A stretch of 64,000 nucleotides of DNA, from positions 1-64,000 of IMG/VR virus record IMGVR_UViG_3300035698_006717. One strand, written 5' to 3'. The translations under genes were made by a program, and so were the position numbers. How positions within the stretch are numbered: the first letter of the stretch is position 1; each line of letters starts with the position of its first letter. Source of the stretch: a virus. Below, piece after piece: positions 2,438 through 44,927 of the stretch. The notes under the pieces are model-generated. The model worked only from the letters and a program-made list of their open reading frames with translations. It was not told where the DNA came from and made no database searches.

Positions 2438-2932
2438 ATGGATACTGTTGACGTAATTGAATCAATACGTAGCTACCTAGCTAATGATGATGACTTGAGA
2501 GCTTTGTTCTCTGGTGTAACTTCAGTCTCCCTTATGCTTAGGAGGATACTGTATCAGAATGCTCAGTACATTAGCATTGAAGATGGTTATCCGTTCCCTA
2601 TGTTATCTGTACAGTTAGATGAAGAAGATGAACCTACTTATGTACCATCTAACATAGTTAGATTGAATATAACTGTCCACAATTCTTGGAAGAACTCAGC
2701 TTGTGCGGAAACAAACGTCCGTATTAAGGATAGGGTTAGAGAATTGATGGCAAATAAGTGTAACACTGATGCTAAAAATGAAGCTATTAATAGTCAAGCT
2801 ACAGAGCTTGGTCTAGTTATCAAGGTAAGGCAGCTGACCTGGGTGGGTGCAGCAACTTACGAAGATAAGGAGCAAGGTTCTGAGAGGCTGCATAAAATTA
2901 GTTGTATAATACAGATGACTGTGGGAGATTAA
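2438..2932 (+). CDS. Putative tail terminator
   Basis: Immediately precedes the tail tube gene; IRSYLAND..L..L and YPFPML pattern. GGAG SD lies 6 nt before ATG 2438. Confidence 0.6.
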   Translation: MDTVDVIESIRSYLANDDDLRALFSGVTSVSLMLRRILYQNAQYISIEDGYPFPMLSVQLDEEDEPTYVPSNIVRLNITVHNSWKNSACAETNVRIKDRVRELMANKCNTDAKNEAINSQATELGLVIKVRQLTWVGAATYEDKEQGSERLHKISCIIQMTVGD

Positions 2933-2935
2933 GTT

Positions 2936-3409
2936 ATGTCCCTACAATTTGGCATCGGTAGCATGTTCACAGGCCCAAACAACGATGAAACGGAGTTTGG
3001 TTGTCTGCAGGGTGTTACCTTTGACTTTAGTTACGATAGGGCTACTCTATACTGTGGTGCAGGTTTGTATCCGTCAGATGTTCGGATTCATACTTCTACT
3101 ATTACAGGTAGAGCAACCTTTGCTGAAATTGATGCTGCTGCTTTCTTCACCATGATTGGTGGAAATGGCTATACTGATGGAGACACTGATATTGTAATTC
3201 TTAACACTACCAGCCCTGCGGCATTTAGGCTGAGAGTTGTTACGACTACTGACGGTGTTGCTATGACAGTACTCTTCAACCAGTGCCGTTCGGATTCACT
3301 TTCGTTCAGCATGGAGCGTACAAGTTACATCATTCCCGATTTTGGGTTCACGGCTTTTGCCGACTCTGGCGGTAATGTTGCTAACATTGTCCTTGGCGAT
3401 GCAAGCTAA
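2936..3409 (+). CDS. Major tail (tube) protein
   Basis: Canonical position terminator-MTP-chaperone-TMP. 157 aa, beta-rich (FGIGSMF...FGCLQGVTFDFSYD). Followed by a strong hairpin. Confidence 0.8.
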   Translation: MSLQFGIGSMFTGPNNDETEFGCLQGVTFDFSYDRATLYCGAGLYPSDVRIHTSTITGRATFAEIDAAAFFTMIGGNGYTDGDTDIVILNTTSPAAFRLRVVTTTDGVAMTVLFNQCRSDSLSFSMERTSYIIPDFGFTAFADSGGNVANIVLGDAS

Positions 3410-3423
3410 TTTAAGTTAATATG

Positions 3424-3501
3424 AGTAGGGAGTCTGAGGTTTGTTGTTTACTGGTTCAACAATCTAAGGCTCCCTACTATTATTTCAAATTTCAACCAGT
3501 A
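3424..3501 (+). promoter_or_regulatory. Long stem-loop (terminator/attenuator-like) with possible pseudoknot between MTP and chaperone
   Basis: AGTAGGGAGTCT (3424-3435) pairs with AGGCTCCCTACT (3467-3478). Loop TACTGGTT is complementary to AACCAGTA (3494-3501). Confidence 0.65.
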
Positions 3502-3519
3502 CACGAAGAGGTAGATTAA

Positions 3520-3990
3520 ATGGCTGAGTTCAAAGATAGTGAATTAAAGGGCGATGTTGCTGAAAAGATTAAGAAGATAACTGACGAAGTTGATACGTCC
3601 ATGCTGAAGGATGATAAGGAACAGGTTGATGAGGTTCTTGGAGAATCTAAGGGTTTGTTCAAGGCATCTAGATCTGGTAAGGAATATAATTTTATTCCTG
3701 TCAGTCTAAGGCAGATACCTGAAATAACACAATTGATAAATAATGTCACAAGCGTATTCACATCTGCTAGTGATGGTGCGAAAACTGATGCTGAGGTTCT
3801 TGATATCACTATGATGGAAAAAATGGCTAAGATAATTGCCATGGGTGTTAGAGAGAATATCGGTTATGAGCAAGTGATGGAGGAGTTCAGCTTAGGAGAC
3901 TTCCCTAAGTGCTTTGAACTGACATTGGACTTAAACGATTTTTTAGCAGGGATGAGGGACATCATGATGAAAAGGGTGCAGAGCGCCTAA
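3520..3990 (+). CDS. Tail assembly chaperone (gpG-like)
   Basis: Between MTP and TMP; acidic and helical; slippery heptamer near its 3' end. Confidence 0.8.
   Translation: MAEFKDSELKGDVAEKIKKITDEVDTSMLKDDKEQVDEVLGESKGLFKASRSGKEYNFIPVSLRQIPEITQLINNVTSVFTSASDGAKTDAEVLDITMMEKMAKIIAMGVRENIGYEQVMEEFSLGDFPKCFELTLDLNDFLAGMRDIMMKRVQSA
3939..3945 (+). promoter_or_regulatory. -1 programmed ribosomal frameshift site T TTT TTA
   Basis: Correct X XXY YYZ register in GAT TTT TTA (D-F-L). The -1 frame is open into ORF 4077-4469. Confidence 0.85.
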
Positions 3991-4469
3991 AAGATGTTCC
4001 TCACTATTCCAATAATTATTATTCGGACATAGTAGATATATTTGCAAAGAGATATGGATGGACAATTGAATATATAATGAATATGACCCGCGCCCAAGTT
4101 AGAGTACTTACAACAAGCGCAGGAGATCATGAAAGAATGCCTGATCCTGATTCTGATAAATTAGAAGATGGTGAAGTAATTGACCTTAAGGAAACTGGCG
4201 GTAAGTTTAAGAAGGCTAAGATTGAACAGAAATATCTTGATCTACTAAGAAAAGGCGTCAAACATCCTGGCAAGTGGAATATGTTTGGAGAGAAAGAAGA
4301 TGATGAGATAAAAGTTTCCGTACCTACTAGCAAAAGCCCAGTAAAGCCGCAAGGTTCCAAAAGCTCTCCTAGTAGCAAAGGGGATATGAGTGAATTTATT
4401 AATGCCGTAAGGCAAGCAAAAAATAAAGGTAAATCTGGAAATATTAAGTCAGACGGTTCAATAGGTTAG
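3942..4469 (+). CDS. Frameshift extension of tail assembly chaperone (gpGT-like C-terminal part)
   Basis: The -1 frame reads FSRDEGHH...DIVDIFAKRYGWTIEYIMNMTRAQV with no stop. The gpT-like motif lies upstream of the ATG at 4077. Confidence 0.8.
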   Translation, partial: FSRDEGHHDEKGAERLKDVPHYSNNYYSDIVDIFAKRYGWTIEYIMNMTRAQVRVLTTSAGDHERMPDPDSDKLEDGEVIDLKETGGKFKKAKIEQKYLDLLRKGVKHPGKWNMFGEKEDDEIKVSVPTSKSPVKPQGSKSSPSSKGDMSEFINAVRQAKNKGKSGNIKSDGSIG

Positions 4470-40073: not shown

Positions 40074-41090
40074 ATGCCACCGAAAAAGAAATCAGAACCA
40101 ACTACTTTCAATAACATAGATGATCTTGTCAATAAGCTAGAGAAGGATCATGGCAAAGGCACCATTATGACGCAGGGCCGTAAGGCTCTAGATGATGTTA
40201 AGTTCATTCCTACAGGGCTGGTGAGCTTAGACTGCGCCTTGGGTGGTGGTATACCTTCTGGTAGGATGATAGAGTGCTACGGGCCAGAGAGTTCAGGCAA
40301 AACCTCATTCACATTACACTGCATAGGTATTGCTCAGCGCCTAGGTAGAACTGCTATGTTTATAGATGCTGAGCATAGTTATGATCCTAAGTATGCTGAA
40401 AAATTTAGAGTTGATAATGAGAAGCTACTTCTCAACCAGCCTGATTCTGCCGAACAGGCTTTGACTATAATGGAGACTTCTGTACAGAGCGGTCTAGTGA
40501 ATCTGATAGTATTAGATTCTGTTGCAGCATTAGTTCCTCAGAGTGAAGTGGAAGGAGAGATGGGAGATGCTCAGATGGGCAAGCAAGCTCGCCTTCTATC
40601 TCAAGCTTGTCGCAAGCTGACTTCTATTATTGGTAAAACTGATTGTACTGTAATATGGATTAATCAGATTCGTATGAAGATAGGTGTTATGTTTGGTAAT
40701 CCTGAAACTACTACTGGCGGTAATGCTCTGAAGTTCTATTGTTCTCAGAGAGTTGATGTGCGCCGTATAGGTAGAATACCAAAGGCCAAAGAATCTATAA
40801 TGACTGGTATGCTTCAGCGTTTCAAAGTAGTCAAGAATAAGGTAGCACCGCCTTTTAGAGAATCAGAGATTGAACTATATTTCAAGAGTGGATATGATTC
40901 TATAGGAGATACTGTATCAGCTGCAGTAGACTTTGATATAATCCAAAAGGCTGGAGCTTGGTATAGTTATGCTGGGGAACGTCTTGGCCAAGGGTTAGCT
41001 GGAGCAATAAAGGGATACCGTCAACTGGACAAGGAAAATAGGCGCACTATTAAGAAGAAGCTGAAAGAATGCTATGAGGCTAATGCGTGA
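40074..41090 (+). CDS. recA: Recombinase RecA
   Basis: GPESSGKT, FIDAEH, DSVAALVP and NQIRMKIGVMFGNPETTTGGNALKFY. Confidence 0.98.
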   Translation: MPPKKKSEPTTFNNIDDLVNKLEKDHGKGTIMTQGRKALDDVKFIPTGLVSLDCALGGGIPSGRMIECYGPESSGKTSFTLHCIGIAQRLGRTAMFIDAEHSYDPKYAEKFRVDNEKLLLNQPDSAEQALTIMETSVQSGLVNLIVLDSVAALVPQSEVEGEMGDAQMGKQARLLSQACRKLTSIIGKTDCTVIWINQIRMKIGVMFGNPETTTGGNALKFYCSQRVDVRRIGRIPKAKESIMTGMLQRFKVVKNKVAPPFRESEIELYFKSGYDSIGDTVSAAVDFDIIQKAGAWYSYAGERLGQGLAGAIKGYRQLDKENRRTIKKKLKECYEANA

Positions 41091-41293
41091 TTATCAAGAA
41101 TGATATTAAGGGACGTAAGAGATTTGATGAGGATGTTCTTGAATGGGATAGATGTTACATAAATGGATTTGAGATAACTGAAGATATGAATGGTGCATTA
41201 AAGATAAGGGATGCTGAATGTATGAATGGTGAGAGAATGGTGGTATTGCCATCAGTATCCAACATTATTGGAATAACAAGGGTTAAAATATGA
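41087..41293 (+). CDS. Hypothetical protein
   Basis: GTGA coupling to recA. Confidence 0.55.
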   Translation: MIIKNDIKGRKRFDEDVLEWDRCYINGFEITEDMNGALKIRDAECMNGERMVVLPSVSNIIGITRVKI

Positions 41294-41499
41294 AACTTGT
41301 GACAAAATTTGATTATCTTGATTATGTTAGATTGGAAGATGTTGGGATGAAGGGTAGGATAGTGAAAATTGAGTTCAGCGGTGGCATAGTCTATAAAGTT
41401 GAATATTGGTTACATGAGGAAATTAAAACTGTATATGTGTATGAAGATGAAATTGAGACATGGAATACTGAATTCAGAAGAATAGGGTTATCAAAATGA
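41290..41499 (+). CDS. Small SH3-like hypothetical protein
   Basis: TKFDYLDYV...YKVEYW...YEDEIE; ATGA coupling. Confidence 0.6.
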   Translation: MKLVTKFDYLDYVRLEDVGMKGRIVKIEFSGGIVYKVEYWLHEEIKTVYVYEDEIETWNTEFRRIGLSK

Positions 41500-42476
41500 A
41501 AATCTTACTAACAGCTGATTGGCACTTAAAACATAAGCATCCATTCTCTCAAGTGGTAGAGGGCAAGGTGTGGGATGAATTATTTGAAGCAAAAATGAGA
41601 GTTCTTTGGGAGCTTCCTAATATTGCGAAGAAAGAAGATGTTGATTGGGTAGCTATAACTGGTGATATATTTGATAACACAAATCCACCTGAAGCTATCA
41701 AAGCAGAAGTTTGTAAGTTATTGGATAAGTTCTCTTGTCCTGTTTTCATAATAAACGGTAATCATGAAACTGCTAGCTTTGGCAACCATGCCCTTATGGA
41801 TATAGGCCAAGCATATAAAAGTACTACCAGTAAGAAGTCTCACGTATTTGTATATAATGACCATAATGTTACTGATGGAATAGGTATGTTCCATATAATG
41901 ATGGAAGGCATAGATGAAAGATACAGAAATGTCATTAAGTTTGAGGATTCTAGATTTGCTGATTGCAATACAATACTCCTTGGAGATTATCATGCTTTCT
42001 TCAAGAAGAATTATGGTGGTAAGACTTTTGTCTATCCTGGCACTCCATATCCCACTCGTTTTGGTGAAGAAAATCATTCTGTTTGTATTTTGGAGTGTGA
42101 CGCTCAAGGAAATACAAGAAATAGTAAACAGGTTGAAATACCCTCATATAAATTCCTTGAATGTAACACGAGTGATATTAAAAAGACAATTGGGGATGCC
42201 GATGCAAAAGGCTTTCAGTATGTACTTAAAGTCAGGACTACTGCAAAACCAGAAAATATGAATAAGATAGCTTTGAAGCTACGGGAGTATAAGGTCAAGC
42301 TGAGCAAAAGAGAAAATTGCTTAGACTTTGTATATTCTATAAAGGCGGCAAAAGTTGTAGCTGAGTTAGAAGATGTGAGCAATAGATCTGTTGAGGATGT
42401 TGCTCTTGAGTACATAGGTAACAATTGCATGTATCCTGAAGAAGGTAAGGCTTTGTTTAAGGAGTTAATGACGTGA
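41496..42476 (+). CDS. SbcD/Mre11-like metallophosphoesterase nuclease
   Basis: TADWH, GDIFD, GNHE, LGDYH and YPGTP...FGE motifs. Confidence 0.9.
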   Translation: MKILLTADWHLKHKHPFSQVVEGKVWDELFEAKMRVLWELPNIAKKEDVDWVAITGDIFDNTNPPEAIKAEVCKLLDKFSCPVFIINGNHETASFGNHALMDIGQAYKSTTSKKSHVFVYNDHNVTDGIGMFHIMMEGIDERYRNVIKFEDSRFADCNTILLGDYHAFFKKNYGGKTFVYPGTPYPTRFGEENHSVCILECDAQGNTRNSKQVEIPSYKFLECNTSDIKKTIGDADAKGFQYVLKVRTTAKPENMNKIALKLREYKVKLSKRENCLDFVYSIKAAKVVAELEDVSNRSVEDVALEYIGNNCMYPEEGKALFKELMT

Positions 42477-42910
42477 GTTATCCTACAAAAAATGTTACTG
42501 GTGTATTTGTAAATGGTGAAAATGTATCTCACCTAATTGATCCTGAAAGTATTGAAATAGATTGGCAGTTTGATAGAACTAAATTGTATTGTGGTGGATC
42601 AGATTACCCTAATGATGTTAGAGTGAATGGTTATCATCCTAAAATTAAAATGAAAACAACATTTATACCAAAAGGTGAATTTGAATTTGATATAGATTTG
42701 AATAAAGGTGCTGAGAAGATACATTTTAATAGATGTATGGTAGATTCTTCTGAAGATGGTGAATTGACTTTGAAGGCTTTTGTAGATAATAATGGTGGTG
42801 TAGGTAGGATTGATTTGAAATTGGATTGGACAGAAAAGTACTTCCCTACATTTTTGAAATGGTTCAAGAATTTAAGGCGGTACTGGCGGAAGATTAAGGG
42901 CGAAGCATGA
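42473..42910 (+). CDS. Shortened paralog of the major tail tube protein with basic amphipathic C-terminal helix
   Basis: Three collinear blocks match ORF 2936-3409. AAGGAG SD; GTG start overlaps the sbcD stop. Confidence 0.8.
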   Translation: MSYPTKNVTGVFVNGENVSHLIDPESIEIDWQFDRTKLYCGGSDYPNDVRVNGYHPKIKMKTTFIPKGEFEFDIDLNKGAEKIHFNRCMVDSSEDGELTLKAFVDNNGGVGRIDLKLDWTEKYFPTFLKWFKNLRRYWRKIKGEA

Positions 42911-43086
42911 GCGCTGGCAAAGGTAGTGCAAGGCGTCAAGAAGATACAAAGGCTATCCGTGATAGATGGCCTATGGATAAGAAGCCAGTTGGTGAAACAA
43001 AGTTTGGTAACTTTTATATGTGCATTAATTGTTACAAACCTGTCATAAATGGAAAGAAGTGCCCAAGATGCGAATCACAAGAATAA
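42907..43086 (+). CDS. 59-aa zinc-ribbon protein (not in ORF track)
   Basis: MSAGKGSARR...CINC...CPRCESQE; ATGA overlap with the upstream gene. Confidence 0.65.
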   Translation: MSAGKGSARRQEDTKAIRDRWPMDKKPVGETKFGNFYMCINCYKPVINGKKCPRCESQE

Positions 43087-44927
43087 AAGCTGAGAATCTA
43101 TTCAGCTGGGAAAAACTAGATATTAAATTTGAAGATGGCACATATTCTCTTACAGGCGAGAATGGTTGCGGCAAGTCTTCTATCTTTGAGATTATTACTT
43201 GGATTGGATTCAAGAAAACTACCAAGAAGAATGTCAAAGGCGATTATGGTAAGAATAATGGCTGGGGGGAATTAGAGTTTGATAATGGTGAATATGTCAT
43301 TAGAAGAAATACCAAAGAACCTATGAGGATATTAGTTAATGGAGAGGAAGCTGAGCAGGATTATGTTGATAATATCCTAGGGTGCCATTATGATACTTTT
43401 ATGGCATCTATTATGTGCAACCAGAAAAGAGTATCTTCATTTATAAATGAGAAGACTGATACTGGTAAGGCTAGGATATTTGGAGAGATGTTAGGAGCAG
43501 GTAGCCTTGACAAAATTAGATCTAAGGTAAGTAAGCGCAAAAATGAGAGAGAACTAGAGTTTGAAGGTGCGCGCAGTAAGTTTGAACTTTTGACTGAACA
43601 GGTGGATACTGCTAAGTTAAAGTTTGGAGGTAAAACTCCAAAACAGTACAAGGCAGTTATTGAAAGGGACAAGGGTGAATACCACAAGCTAGTAGCAGGG
43701 GAAAAGTTGCTACAAGATAAGGTAGATAAGGCATATGATATAGCAAATCTTTGGAGAAACTATGAAAGCTCTCATGTAGAATATAATAAGGCTTTGTCAA
43801 AACGCAGCAATACGGAGACTGAATTAAAAGAGTCCAAAGATAAATTTGATACTATGGAGATACCTGATGAAACTGGGGCAGGTAAGTATGCGGGTATGTT
43901 GGTTAAGGCTGACAAGATATACCAAAAACTATCTACTGAAGTAATTTACCTTGAAGCAGATATACAAAAGCTAGAAGACATCAAGAGTCTAGGTGAAGGG
44001 GAATGCCCTACTTGTGGTGAGAAAGTTACCATTAAGAAGATTGAACATATTCAAGGTATTATTGATAGATATGGAACAGATCTATACAAGCTTGAAGAGA
44101 AACGCGCTGAGATAGATACTAAGGTTGCCAAAATTAAGGTCAAGCTTAGAAAGATGAAGGAATATGAGGATGAATGGCAAGAGTCAAGGAAAGATGCAGT
44201 ATTCCTACAGCGTATCATAGATAACCTACCCAAGATAATTAAGGTTGAACCTCCTAAACAAGAGAAGATGGACGTTTCAGAGCTTAAGTCAGATCTAGCT
44301 AGGAGCCGCGATAAGGCGTTTGAACTTAAGGGGGGTATAAGGGATAGGGTAAACGTATTGAAAGGCTATATAGAAGCTGAGAGGAGCTTAAAAGCGGCTG
44401 AAAGTATCTATAGGGATAGGGAGAAGGAATACTATGTAGCAAAATGGTTGTTCACTTCCCTACCTTTGATAAAACTTATGTTTATTGAAGAGAATAAGAT
44501 GGTGTTGGAGAATGCTATTAATGAATACTTGTCTACTATGAATGTACAGTTCATGGTTAAGATTGATACACAAAAGGAAATGAAATCAAGGAAAGAGATT
44601 AAGGATGAATTCTCATTCCAAATATTAAGCTCTAACAGGAAGGTTGATAAGGCAGATTTATCTGGTGGAGAGGAGACAATAATACTACTTGCTACTCAGT
44701 TTGCTATTAATGATCTGATTAATCCTAATTTGAAGCTAGAAATATATGATGAGATTTATGGAGCATTATCTGACAATAATGTCAGCACAGTAGTAGATGC
44801 TATAAAGGATAGAGGTGAGTCCAAACAGATATTCACTATATCCCACAAACCTGAAATAAGTAACTCATTTGATAGTTCCATTCTAATCAAAAAGAATGAG
44901 GAAGGCAGTTATGTTGAAAGAATTTGA
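43068..44927 (+). CDS. SbcC/Rad50-like ATPase
   Basis: GENGCGKS, coiled coils, CPTC zinc hook, LSGGE, DEIYGAL and ISH motifs. Confidence 0.92.
   Translation: MRITRIKAENLFSWEKLDIKFEDGTYSLTGENGCGKSSIFEIITWIGFKKTTKKNVKGDYGKNNGWGELEFDNGEYVIRRNTKEPMRILVNGEEAEQDYVDNILGCHYDTFMASIMCNQKRVSSFINEKTDTGKARIFGEMLGAGSLDKIRSKVSKRKNERELEFEGARSKFELLTEQVDTAKLKFGGKTPKQYKAVIERDKGEYHKLVAGEKLLQDKVDKAYDIANLWRNYESSHVEYNKALSKRSNTETELKESKDKFDTMEIPDETGAGKYAGMLVKADKIYQKLSTEVIYLEADIQKLEDIKSLGEGECPTCGEKVTIKKIEHIQGIIDRYGTDLYKLEEKRAEIDTKVAKIKVKLRKMKEYEDEWQESRKDAVFLQRIIDNLPKIIKVEPPKQEKMDVSELKSDLARSRDKAFELKGGIRDRVNVLKGYIEAERSLKAAESIYRDREKEYYVAKWLFTSLPLIKLMFIEENKMVLENAINEYLSTMNVQFMVKIDTQKEMKSRKEIKDEFSFQILSSNRKVDKADLSGGEETIILLATQFAINDLINPNLKLEIYDEIYGALSDNNVSTVVDAIKDRGESKQIFTISHKPEISNSFDSSILIKKNEEGSYVERI

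Follow-up and report, generated by a model that had tools for sequence, protein, structure and literature searches.

The open reading frame described here was found in the genome of an uncultured 105-kb phage, of which a window of 64 kb was analysed; all coordinates refer to this window and are collected in Table 1. The ORF codes for 145 amino acids and is located between sbcD and sbcC, outside the tail module and 39.5 kb away from the gene of the tail tube protein, with which it is compared below. Its two ends are closely joined to the neighbouring genes. The GTG start overlaps the sbcD stop by 4 nt (GTGA), and the TGA stop overlaps the ATG of the zinc-ribbon ORF, again by 4 nt (ATGA). The Shine-Dalgarno sequence AAGGAG precedes the GTG start by 8 nt; according to a sequence alignment its counterpart in the related phage L004 serves the zinc-ribbon gene. 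All these elements were read directly, which bears out the original prediction of a good Shine-Dalgarno sequence and of translational coupling far from the tail module. Since translation is coupled to sbcD, the product should be made together with the recombination genes and not with the tail genes. For sbcC, the TTG at 43029 given in the ORF-finder listing was rejected as start in favour of an ATG further downstream.

The GC content (0.326) and GC3 (0.233) of the 145-aa ORF are the lowest among the genes of the window, the GC content of the tube gene being 0.45. By our own estimate 145 open codons at 33% GC are expected by chance with a probability of about 1e-5. With its open frame, the overlaps at both ends and the good Shine-Dalgarno sequence the gene looks maintained.

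Table 1. Genes and sequence features at the sbcD-sbcC junction and the reference tail tube gene (residue numbers of blocks and helix are those of the 145-aa ORF, except for block sequences ascribed to the tube).
Feature	Position	Strand	Evidence or remark
sbcD, Mre11-type nuclease subunit	41496-42476	+	family searches
Shine-Dalgarno sequence AAGGAG	42459-42464	+	direct reading and alignment; within the 3' end of sbcD
Accessory ORF, 145 aa, tube-derived	42473-42910	+	sequence reading, BLASTP, hhalign, HMM, MAFFT, AF2, VIA
Block 1, residues 25-52, conserved strand / Gly-turn / strand	42545-42628	+	BLASTP, HMM, MAFFT
Block 2, residues 85-92, FNRCMVDS (tube: FNQCRSDS)	42725-42748	+	significant only jointly with block 3
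Block 3, residues 102-115, AFVDNNGGVGRIDL, last beta-hairpin of the tube domain	42776-42817	+	hhalign, HMM, shuffles
New basic amphipathic helix, residues 124-142 (19 residues), absent from all tube proteins	42842-42898	+	MAFFT, moment, AF2
Zinc-ribbon ORF, 59 aa, CxxC...CxxC	42907-43086	+	57% identity in relative L004
sbcC, Rad50-type ATPase	43068-44927	+	start is the ATG at 43068
Major tail tube protein, 157 aa, reference homologue	2936-3409	+	gene position and family profile

The tube gene is flanked by a Neck1/tail-completion gene on one side and by ORFs in chaperone position and the tape measure gene on the other. We found 23 orthologs of the tube protein at 55-88% identity and collected 26 in total, and the profile of this family matches the HFTV1 tail tube protein gp35 (PDB 9fkb), a distant relative of solved structure, with an E-value of 0.0048. 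BLASTP aligns the 145-aa ORF with the tube protein over 40 aa (E 7e-9), and hhalign against a 24-member tube family pairs residues 25-116 with tube residues 25-154 (probability 93.7%, E 1.8e-7, 89 columns). Most of the signal is found in block 1, which reaches 27.6 bits (E 1e-10) with the family HMM. Block 3 alone is detected at E 0.012-0.03, and block 2 alone is not detected by the family HMM. Blocks 2 and 3 together (residues 54-117) gave a mean Smith-Waterman score of 34.3 against the C-terminal parts of the tube proteins, in comparison to 22.4 +/- 2.3 for shuffled sequences (n=300, z 5.1), none of which reached the real score. For the N-terminal 24 residues no similarity to the tube was seen. 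The MAFFT alignment is the same as that of hhalign and collinear, with gaps in the ORF at tube residues 57-84 and 125-133. The identities counted earlier for the three collinear blocks (12/21, 5/8 and 7/14) are correct by direct reading, and the proposed deletions of about 27 and 9 aa agree with the roughly 25-28 and 9 missing residues indicated by both programs. Judged by these alignments, the 145-aa ORF is truly homologous to the tail tube family, in shortened form.

The earlier assumption that it was copied from the tube gene of the same phage is, on the other hand, not supported, at least not as a recent event. The ORF is no closer to the phage's own tube protein (29% identity, 37 bits) than to those of other phages, which reach 30% and 40 bits, and the identity to every member of the family lies between 25 and 30%. 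In the tree the ORF is placed on a very long branch outside the entire tube family. No similarity between the ORF and the tube gene was detected at the DNA level, and the GC content of the two differs. With a protein identity of about 28%, synonymous sites are saturated.

Seven of 35 invariant family columns are kept by the ORF, and six of these seven fall into block 1 (D30, C40, G41, Y45, D48 and R50), where the family has ten. Outside this block D120 is the sole survivor of about 25 invariant residues. The family motif ERTxYxIPDFGF is lost, its ERTxYxIP part being deleted and DFGF replaced by ELTL, and the LGDAS at the C-terminus of the tube is replaced by a 27-aa tail. The deleted segment of 25-28 residues probably includes the tube helix. 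That 6/10 invariants are kept in block 1 at an overall identity of 25-30%, with only D120 left elsewhere, indicates selection on block 1, which we infer to be probably the conserved (inter-ring) beta-hairpin of the tube. It is unlikely that the product is an ordinary tube subunit, because the most conserved motifs of the family are gone and the closest relative has no such ORF at this locus; in this respect the original prediction still stands. It also described a gained basic, aromatic and amphipathic tail, with which our data agree: the helical hydrophobic moment of residues 124-141 is 0.74, the 28-residue tail (118-145) has a net charge of +5, and AF2 models the helix with block-mean pLDDT values of about 69-89.

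The AF2 model of the whole ORF consists of six strands and the helix and is of medium confidence (pLDDT 60.7), with values below 50 for residues 30-64, which include block 1. Among the best 50 matches of the VIA search, nearly all are Hcp proteins or tube proteins of phage tails or injection systems. The top one is the YSD1 major tail protein (Z 9.1, rmsd 3.2, 106 residues aligned), and the HFTV1 tube reaches Z 5.9. With Foldseek no match at E <= 0.001 was obtained for the ORF model; the top two rows are the SPR tail tube protein with E 0.05-0.07. The tube-like fold expected earlier was thus recovered at medium confidence, and it is not independent of the sequence homology, since the tube family was used as alignment for the model. 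On the basis of this model the product is predicted to have a beta-sandwich tube domain of the tube/Hcp fold superfamily. Leads from the ESM Atlas were weak: in one cluster 14% of the members carry Phage_tube_2. For the tube protein itself the quality of the AF2 model was too low for use (pLDDT 39.9). The complex prediction for tube protein and ORF product scored 0.27 against a mark of 0.32, a value that speaks neither for nor against such a complex.

We also looked for orthologs of the ORF. None were found by tblastn in 50,697 phage records, neither with the ORF nor with the tube protein as query, among 5.8 billion protein clusters (word-indexed search), or by scans of IMG/VR with the ORF and with SbcC. 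No prophage copies turned up when genome contigs were scanned with the tube profile. A full HMMER search of 1.84 billion representatives likewise gave no ortholog; its three unrelated matches (Big_3 Ig-like, Listeria-Bacteroides and SH3 repeats) were rejected as summed-repeat artefacts, because each of these repeat proteins aligns over and over with one short stretch of the query, a different one in each case. The ORF has no match in Pfam and PHROGs, and a PADLOC match to NYN (E 0.018) is at chance level. The same paralog, envisaged by the original prediction for the sbcD-sbcC position of related phages, was looked for and found in none of the databases searched.

The closest relative, L004, whose SbcD is 75% identical, has the zinc-ribbon gene alone at this site, the two loci being distinguished by a clean 438-nt indel. 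The complete 89.7-kb genome of another relative contains the tube gene only. Among 11 distinct relatives sbcD and sbcC are adjacent in seven, and the other four have a small ORF inserted. The earlier view that the ORF splits a usually adjacent gene pair overlooks that cassettes are taken up at this site. In L010 the insert is a DNA methyltransferase (phrog_11619, E 3e-33), and other small ORFs are found in L004, L009 and L012. Phages of this group have a hot spot of accessory genes at the sbcD-sbcC junction, and the zinc-ribbon gene is its older occupant. The 83-aa junction ORF of L012 was considered as a second tail-derived cassette and dismissed: its match to a Pfam tail terminator (E 7e-4) is sub-threshold, it has no PHROG match, and it showed no similarity to our window. 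The 18-nt stretches at 42456-42473 and 42871-42888 form an imperfect direct repeat, which does not stand out from the background of such repeats and was rejected as a mark of insertion.

Variable slots of this type typically house counter-defence or competition genes, and immune sensors of conserved virion proteins, tail tubes included, are widespread in bacteria. Our best guess, which is a tentative one, is that the ORF encodes an accessory tube mimic competing for tube-recognising proteins. The gene itself is real, lineage-specific and accessory; it derives from the tail-tube gene of a siphophage and almost certainly provides no tube building block any more. With the beta-sandwich core and block 1 kept, its product may display the conserved tube surface, bind a partner that recognises tube monomers and in this way rival the genuine tube protein. 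The likeliest target would be an immune sensor by which the host detects tail tube proteins, in which case the mimic would be a non-activating decoy with a role like that of DSAD1 against DSR2. DSR2 senses tail tube proteins, and Avs16 does so via a conserved inter-ring beta-hairpin (PMC13581612). DSAD1 occupies the tube-binding pocket of DSR2 and thereby blocks it (PMC10973363). For the 145-aa ORF we infer the non-polymerising state, early or middle expression, the binding partner and the decoy effect. Two points speak against a decoy: a retained epitope that is sensed could equally trigger the sensor early and harm the phage, and the basic amphipathic helix is left unexplained by a soluble decoy. 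More generally, stripped-down tube homologues outside tail modules may form a recurrent, undescribed accessory class that mimics the tube surface, either as sensor decoys or as cappers of competitor tails. We regard this wider reading as doubtful; the 145-aa ORF would then be an example with an added helix for putative binding of membranes or nucleic acids.

Competition between phages, a somewhat unlikely explanation in our view, would make the product a poison or capping subunit that interferes with tail assembly, or a membrane-associated superinfection-exclusion factor. As a poison it would dock via the kept block on tube rings or on the complex of tape measure protein and chaperone and make extension impossible; as an exclusion factor it would keep its tube-like domain on the inner membrane by means of the amphipathic helix, in contact with the incoming tail tip or tape measure protein from a related phage. 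Phage-encoded blockers of tail assembly are known, namely Tab (PMC10884400) and Tai (PMC11364771). The retention of the core and of the most conserved block with the loss of the other invariant motifs is the pattern expected for a dominant-negative subunit, the strength of the helical moment and the charge of the tail fit peripheral membrane binding, and the ORF sits in an accessory slot with its presence varying between close relatives. Because it is equally distant from all tube family members, its product could also act on relatives. However, a poison subunit endangers the tail of its own phage too, unless this is prevented by its timing or specificity, the ORF has no signal peptide or transmembrane segment, and the helix may rather lie against the beta-sandwich, filling the room left by the internal deletion. 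Unlikely, to our mind, is a neutral or decaying passenger, i.e. a fragment of a tube gene that was caught by illegitimate recombination at the junction of sbcD and the zinc-ribbon gene and is open by chance or recency. Such an origin is suggested by the restriction of the ORF to one genome in the databases searched, its extreme divergence, the two internal deletions that removed invariant motifs, the low GC content and the closest relative, which does without it. An intact frame of 145 codons in AT-rich DNA, a good Shine-Dalgarno sequence and the exact overlaps with both neighbours speak against it, as do the uneven divergence, with block 1 conserved and the remainder drifted, and a model with a compact beta-sandwich and a well-formed amphipathic helix.

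The tube-like fold and the homology to the tube family would also suit a minor component of virion or assembly, such as a tube-like ring or an adaptor encoded outside the tail module, or a control of the phage's own tube polymerisation. A diverged structural duplicate, T5 p140, provides a precedent (PMC10038345). We nevertheless find this very unlikely. The known structural duplicates lie in the tail module and not, like the ORF, in a distant recombination block, the most conserved motifs of the family are lost, and the ORF is absent at this site in a relative with a probably about 83% identical tube protein as well as from the 89.7-kb relative, so that its product is no core tail part. Equally improbable is a tube fold repurposed for DNA transactions, in which the product, as a ring or part of one with a lumen wide enough for DNA and with a basic C-terminal helix, would aid or regulate SbcCD together with the zinc-ribbon protein, for instance by binding or protecting ends. 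The lumens of tube and Hcp rings do pass dsDNA, the ORF is translationally coupled within the series sbcD, zinc-ribbon ORF and sbcC, and its aromatic and basic tail is a putative nucleic acid binder. The junctions of relatives hold unrelated cassettes, the methyltransferase included, so the position implies no functional link, and the SbcCD of seven relatives works without any insert.

If the tube mimic is indeed a decoy, a decoy derived from the target itself would be a simple escape from sensors that requires no change of essential structural proteins. If it caps or poisons tubes, it would represent a new type of inter-phage weapon and a natural tool for studies of tube polymerisation. Even a neutral remnant would document how cassettes enter the sbcD/sbcC junction of this phage group at a 4-nt start/stop overlap. 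With 145 aa, one conserved block kept and one helix added, the ORF is a small construct that can be tested.

Compared with the tube family, the ORF shares the collinear homology, the six invariants of block 1 and a modelled beta-sandwich that matches tube and Hcp proteins. It differs in its low identity, the lack of the two internal segments, the added tail, the AT-richness and in not being a core gene, as it is absent from the L004 locus and from the complete genome of the 89.7-kb relative (G001). T5 p140 is likewise a highly diverged and stripped-down duplicate of a tube protein (pb6), with 9% identity to it, a missing Ig-like domain and a ring in the tail tip; its gene position served as an argument for its role (PMC10038345). 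In contrast to the ORF, p140 has its gene within the tail module, is conserved among the T5-like phages and forms a ring of the virion (PMC10038345), while the ORF lies outside the tail or baseplate module, is not conserved across its group, occurs in one genome only and lacks the conserved ring-contact motifs. Tab of Pseudomonas prophages and Tai of lambdoid phages and PICIs resemble the ORF as small accessory genes in variable 'moron' loci, and both interfere with the tail assembly of competitors, Tab through the tape measure protein (PMC10884400, PMC11364771). They were described in temperate elements and are not presented there as tube homologues. DSAD1 of SPbeta-like phages remains the model for the decoy reading, as it occupies the sensor pocket and prevents activation; it is described as a functional mimic and is not called a tube homologue there (PMC10973363), whereas the 145-aa ORF is, by its alignments, a true homologue of the tube.

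The ORF between sbcD and sbcC, called the paralog in the following, resembles the major tail tube protein of the same phage in three collinear stretches (blocks 1 to 3), whose identity counts had been given correctly in the original prediction. Block 1 (residues 25-52) matches the tube protein by BLASTP with an E-value of 7e-9. In an HMM test it scores 27.6 bits on its own (E 1e-10); block 3 alone reaches E 0.012-0.03, and block 2 alone was not detected in that test. Hhalign places paralog residues 25-116 on residues 25-154 of the tube family (probability 93.7%, E 1.8e-7), the two gaps spanning about 25 and 9 residues. The same collinear alignment with two internal gaps, as originally proposed, was independently obtained with MAFFT, which puts the gaps at tube residues 57-84 and 125-133. 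Residues 54-117 compared with the C-terminal parts of tube proteins give a z of 5.1, a score reached by 0 of 300 shuffles, and the homology therefore extends past block 1; residues 1-24 show no similarity to the tube family in this comparison. The data support a shortened protein derived from a tail tube. Residues 93-126 (42749-42850, SEDGELTLKAFVDNNGGVGRIDLKLDWTEKYFPT) also resemble the last two strands and linker of Big_3-type Ig-like repeats, with 15 of 34 positions identical to the best repeat of a 2600-aa surface protein; this likeness was judged to be a common beta-hairpin motif and not homology.

The reference protein itself is, by its sequence matches and gene neighbourhood, the tail tube protein. 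A Neck1/tail-completion gene (phrog_5) lies upstream of it, and two chaperone-position ORFs and an 1886-aa tape measure protein (phrog_1533, E 1.8e-75) follow downstream. It has 23 metagenome orthologs with 55-88% identity, whose profile matches the tail tube structure solved for HFTV1, an archaeal siphovirus (PDB 9fkb, E 0.0048; PMC12494034). On their upstream side the neck genes adjoin the gene of a long low-complexity protein (3-1340, SASESSSVSPSAS...) made of Ser/Ala/Glu-rich repeats, whose C-terminal domain is globular. It extends past the start of the window.

The AF2 model of the tube protein is unusable (pLDDT 39.9). That of the paralog (pLDDT 60.7) contains strands at 8-14, 17-22, 68-76, 79-92, 97-103 and 111-115 and a helix at 124-142, with low confidence for residues 30-64, and fits a tube-type beta-sandwich over residues 3-117. 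Foldseek returned nothing at E <= 0.001 for this model, its top rows above that value being the SPR tail tube protein. In an exhaustive VIA search the best match was the major tail protein of YSD1 (Z 9.1, rmsd 3.2, 106 aligned), and almost every one of the 50 leading entries was an Hcp or a tube protein of a phage or injection system, among them those of HFTV1 (Z 5.9) and SPP1 (Z 5.7). Since the input alignment of the model consisted of the tube family, fold and sequence homology are not independent lines of evidence.

The paralog had been described as a copy of the phage's own tube protein, a view which is not supported; it is not a recent copy. Over aligned columns it shares 25-30% identity with each of 27 tube proteins; the value for its own tube is 29.3%, that for three others 30.2%, and by BLAST bit score its own tube ranks only ninth. 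A maximum-likelihood tree groups the phage's tube with its close orthologs and places the paralog outside the tube family on a very long branch (paralog-tube distances 2.7-3.1, tube-tube maximum 1.24). No DNA-level similarity was found between the two genes, and GC and GC3 are 0.326 and 0.233 for the paralog versus 0.454 and 0.392 for the tube gene (window GC 0.379). Possible histories are an old duplication lost elsewhere, very fast divergence, or acquisition from a phage, as yet unsampled, whose tube is related.

The underlying IMG/VR virus record, of which the window covers the initial 64 kb, comprises 105,409 bp and is rated complete; all large ORFs in the window lie on the plus strand except two short ones, which are possibly not genes. 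Pfam and PHROG matches establish the identity of SbcD and SbcC. The start codon of the paralog overlaps the sbcD stop by 4 nt (GTGA) and is preceded at 8 nt by AAGGAG, which bears out the predicted ribosome binding site and translational coupling, while its stop overlaps the ATG of a zinc-ribbon ORF. The latter overlaps sbcC by 19 nt, as the N-termini of related SbcC proteins place the true sbcC start at ATG 43068 and contradict the TTG at 43029 chosen by the ORF finder. Joint production of the paralog with the recombination genes is supported by this reading of the sequence.

Coordinates of the paralog, the tail tube gene and the ORFs at the sbcD/sbcC junction of relatives
Feature	Position	Strand	Remarks
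Paralog ORF	42473-42910	+	145 aa, GTG start, TGA stop
Zinc-ribbon ORF	42907-43086	+	59 aa, CxxC...CxxC
Tail tube protein	2936-3409	+	157 aa; neighbours and profile match
Zinc-ribbon ORF	L004:5978-6208		sbcD/sbcC junction
39-aa ORF	L009:3319-3438		sbcD/sbcC junction
162-aa DNA methyltransferase	L010:1394-1882		junction; phrog_11619, E 3e-33
83-aa ORF	L012:5987-6238, same in L011		sbcD/sbcC junction

No ortholog of the paralog was found in 50,697 phage records, 5.8 billion protein clusters, 1.84 billion representatives and IMG/VR; three matches from the exhaustive search were repeat-protein artefacts. The closest relative covering the region, the 58-kb metagenome contig L004 (SbcD 75%, SbcC 65% identical), has nothing in the gap except a 76-aa ORF homologous to the zinc-ribbon one, and the DNA alignment gives a clean 438-nt indel. 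Its junction reads ...AAGGAGTTGATGGT-ATGAGT-GGGAAAGG, that of the window ...AAGGAGTTAATGAC-GTGAGT...[paralog]...GAAGC-ATGAGC-GCTGGCAAAGG; with its insertion, the paralog therefore came to use the Shine-Dalgarno sequence and overlap that had belonged to the zinc-ribbon gene. In the complete 89.7-kb relative G001, sbcD and sbcC lie side by side, and there is a single tube-like gene. The expectation that the paralog interrupts a usually adjacent pair holds for 7 of 11 distinct relatives; the other four carry differing small ORFs, the start of each overlapping the sbcD stop by the same 4 nt. The junction is thus an accessory-gene slot, a cassette hot spot, and the paralog a lineage-specific accessory gene, whose position implies no link to SbcCD.

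An imperfect 18-nt direct repeat (14/18; 42456-42473 and 42871-42888), the downstream copy of which is a degenerate sbcD 3' end plus Shine-Dalgarno lying 19 nt upstream of the start codon of the zinc-ribbon ORF, may be an insertion scar, but it does not exceed the noise expected for repeats of such length. For the 83-aa ORF, Pfam gives a possibly accidental match to the tail terminator family PF25685 that stays below threshold (E 7e-4, 20 bits versus a cut-off of 27). Ahead of sbcD, two small ORFs (41087-41499; MIIKND..., 68 aa; MKLVTKFDYLDY..., 69 aa) stand in reverse order in L004 (4314-5004), with a Gly/Arg-rich ORF between them. The window encodes a RecA of 338 aa (40074-41090), L004 one of 620 aa (2455-4317). 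The approximately 280 extra residues lie inside the P-loop (GPES/C...VVHN/SGKT), run from a Cys to a His-Asn that precedes Ser, and include HNH-like motifs; they look like an intein missing from the window RecA.

Only 7 of 35 tube-family invariants are kept, namely D30, C40, G41, Y45, D48 and R50 in block 1 and D120 of CRSDS. Lost are the tube 57-84 segment with the sole helix of the poor tube model (H67-73), the most conserved family motif ERTxYxIPDFGF and the C-terminal LGDAS. Block 1 has a strand/Gly-turn/strand pattern, is disordered in the monomer model, and would represent the conserved beta-hairpin of tube proteins, which forms the interface of stacked rings and is contacted by the sensor Avs16 (PMC13581612). 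Nothing in the tube proteins of the MAFFT alignment corresponds to the last 28 residues. The basic amphipathic tail noticed earlier is indeed present, with a helical hydrophobic moment of 0.74 for residues 124-141 and a net charge of +5 for the tail (residues 1-117, -5; tube protein, -10). These data support a non-core tube-derived protein which kept one conserved tube element and acquired a new amphipathic helix. As a candidate alternative to membrane binding, the tail would pack on the beta-sandwich and replace the deleted internal segment.

What such a protein does can only be ranked. That it is a neutral remnant seems rather improbable: the open frame of 145 codons in 33% GC DNA has an estimated chance of ~1e-5, and together with the exact overlaps at both ends, the uneven conservation and a compact model with helix it favours a maintained gene, a homologue of the tail-tube family with a putative accessory, non-structural role. 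That the protein is, like T5 p140 (PMC10038345), a minor component of the virion or an assembly factor is improbable, and repurposing for DNA transactions, at a slot whose cargo varies, equally so. Somewhat more credit than to a remnant may be given to tail-assembly interference or superinfection exclusion, which would explain the amphipathic helix better than mimicry does.

Our tentative first choice, itself far from assured, is competitive mimicry, in which the paralog would compete with the tube monomer for a protein that recognises tubes, a host sensor being the most plausible. It is suggested by the counter-defence-type cargo, a methyltransferase, held by the slot in a relative, by the existence of the tail-tube sensors DSR2 and Avs16 (PMC13581612), and by a precedent: the protein DSAD1 occupies the tube-binding pocket of DSR2 and thereby blocks it (PMC10973363).
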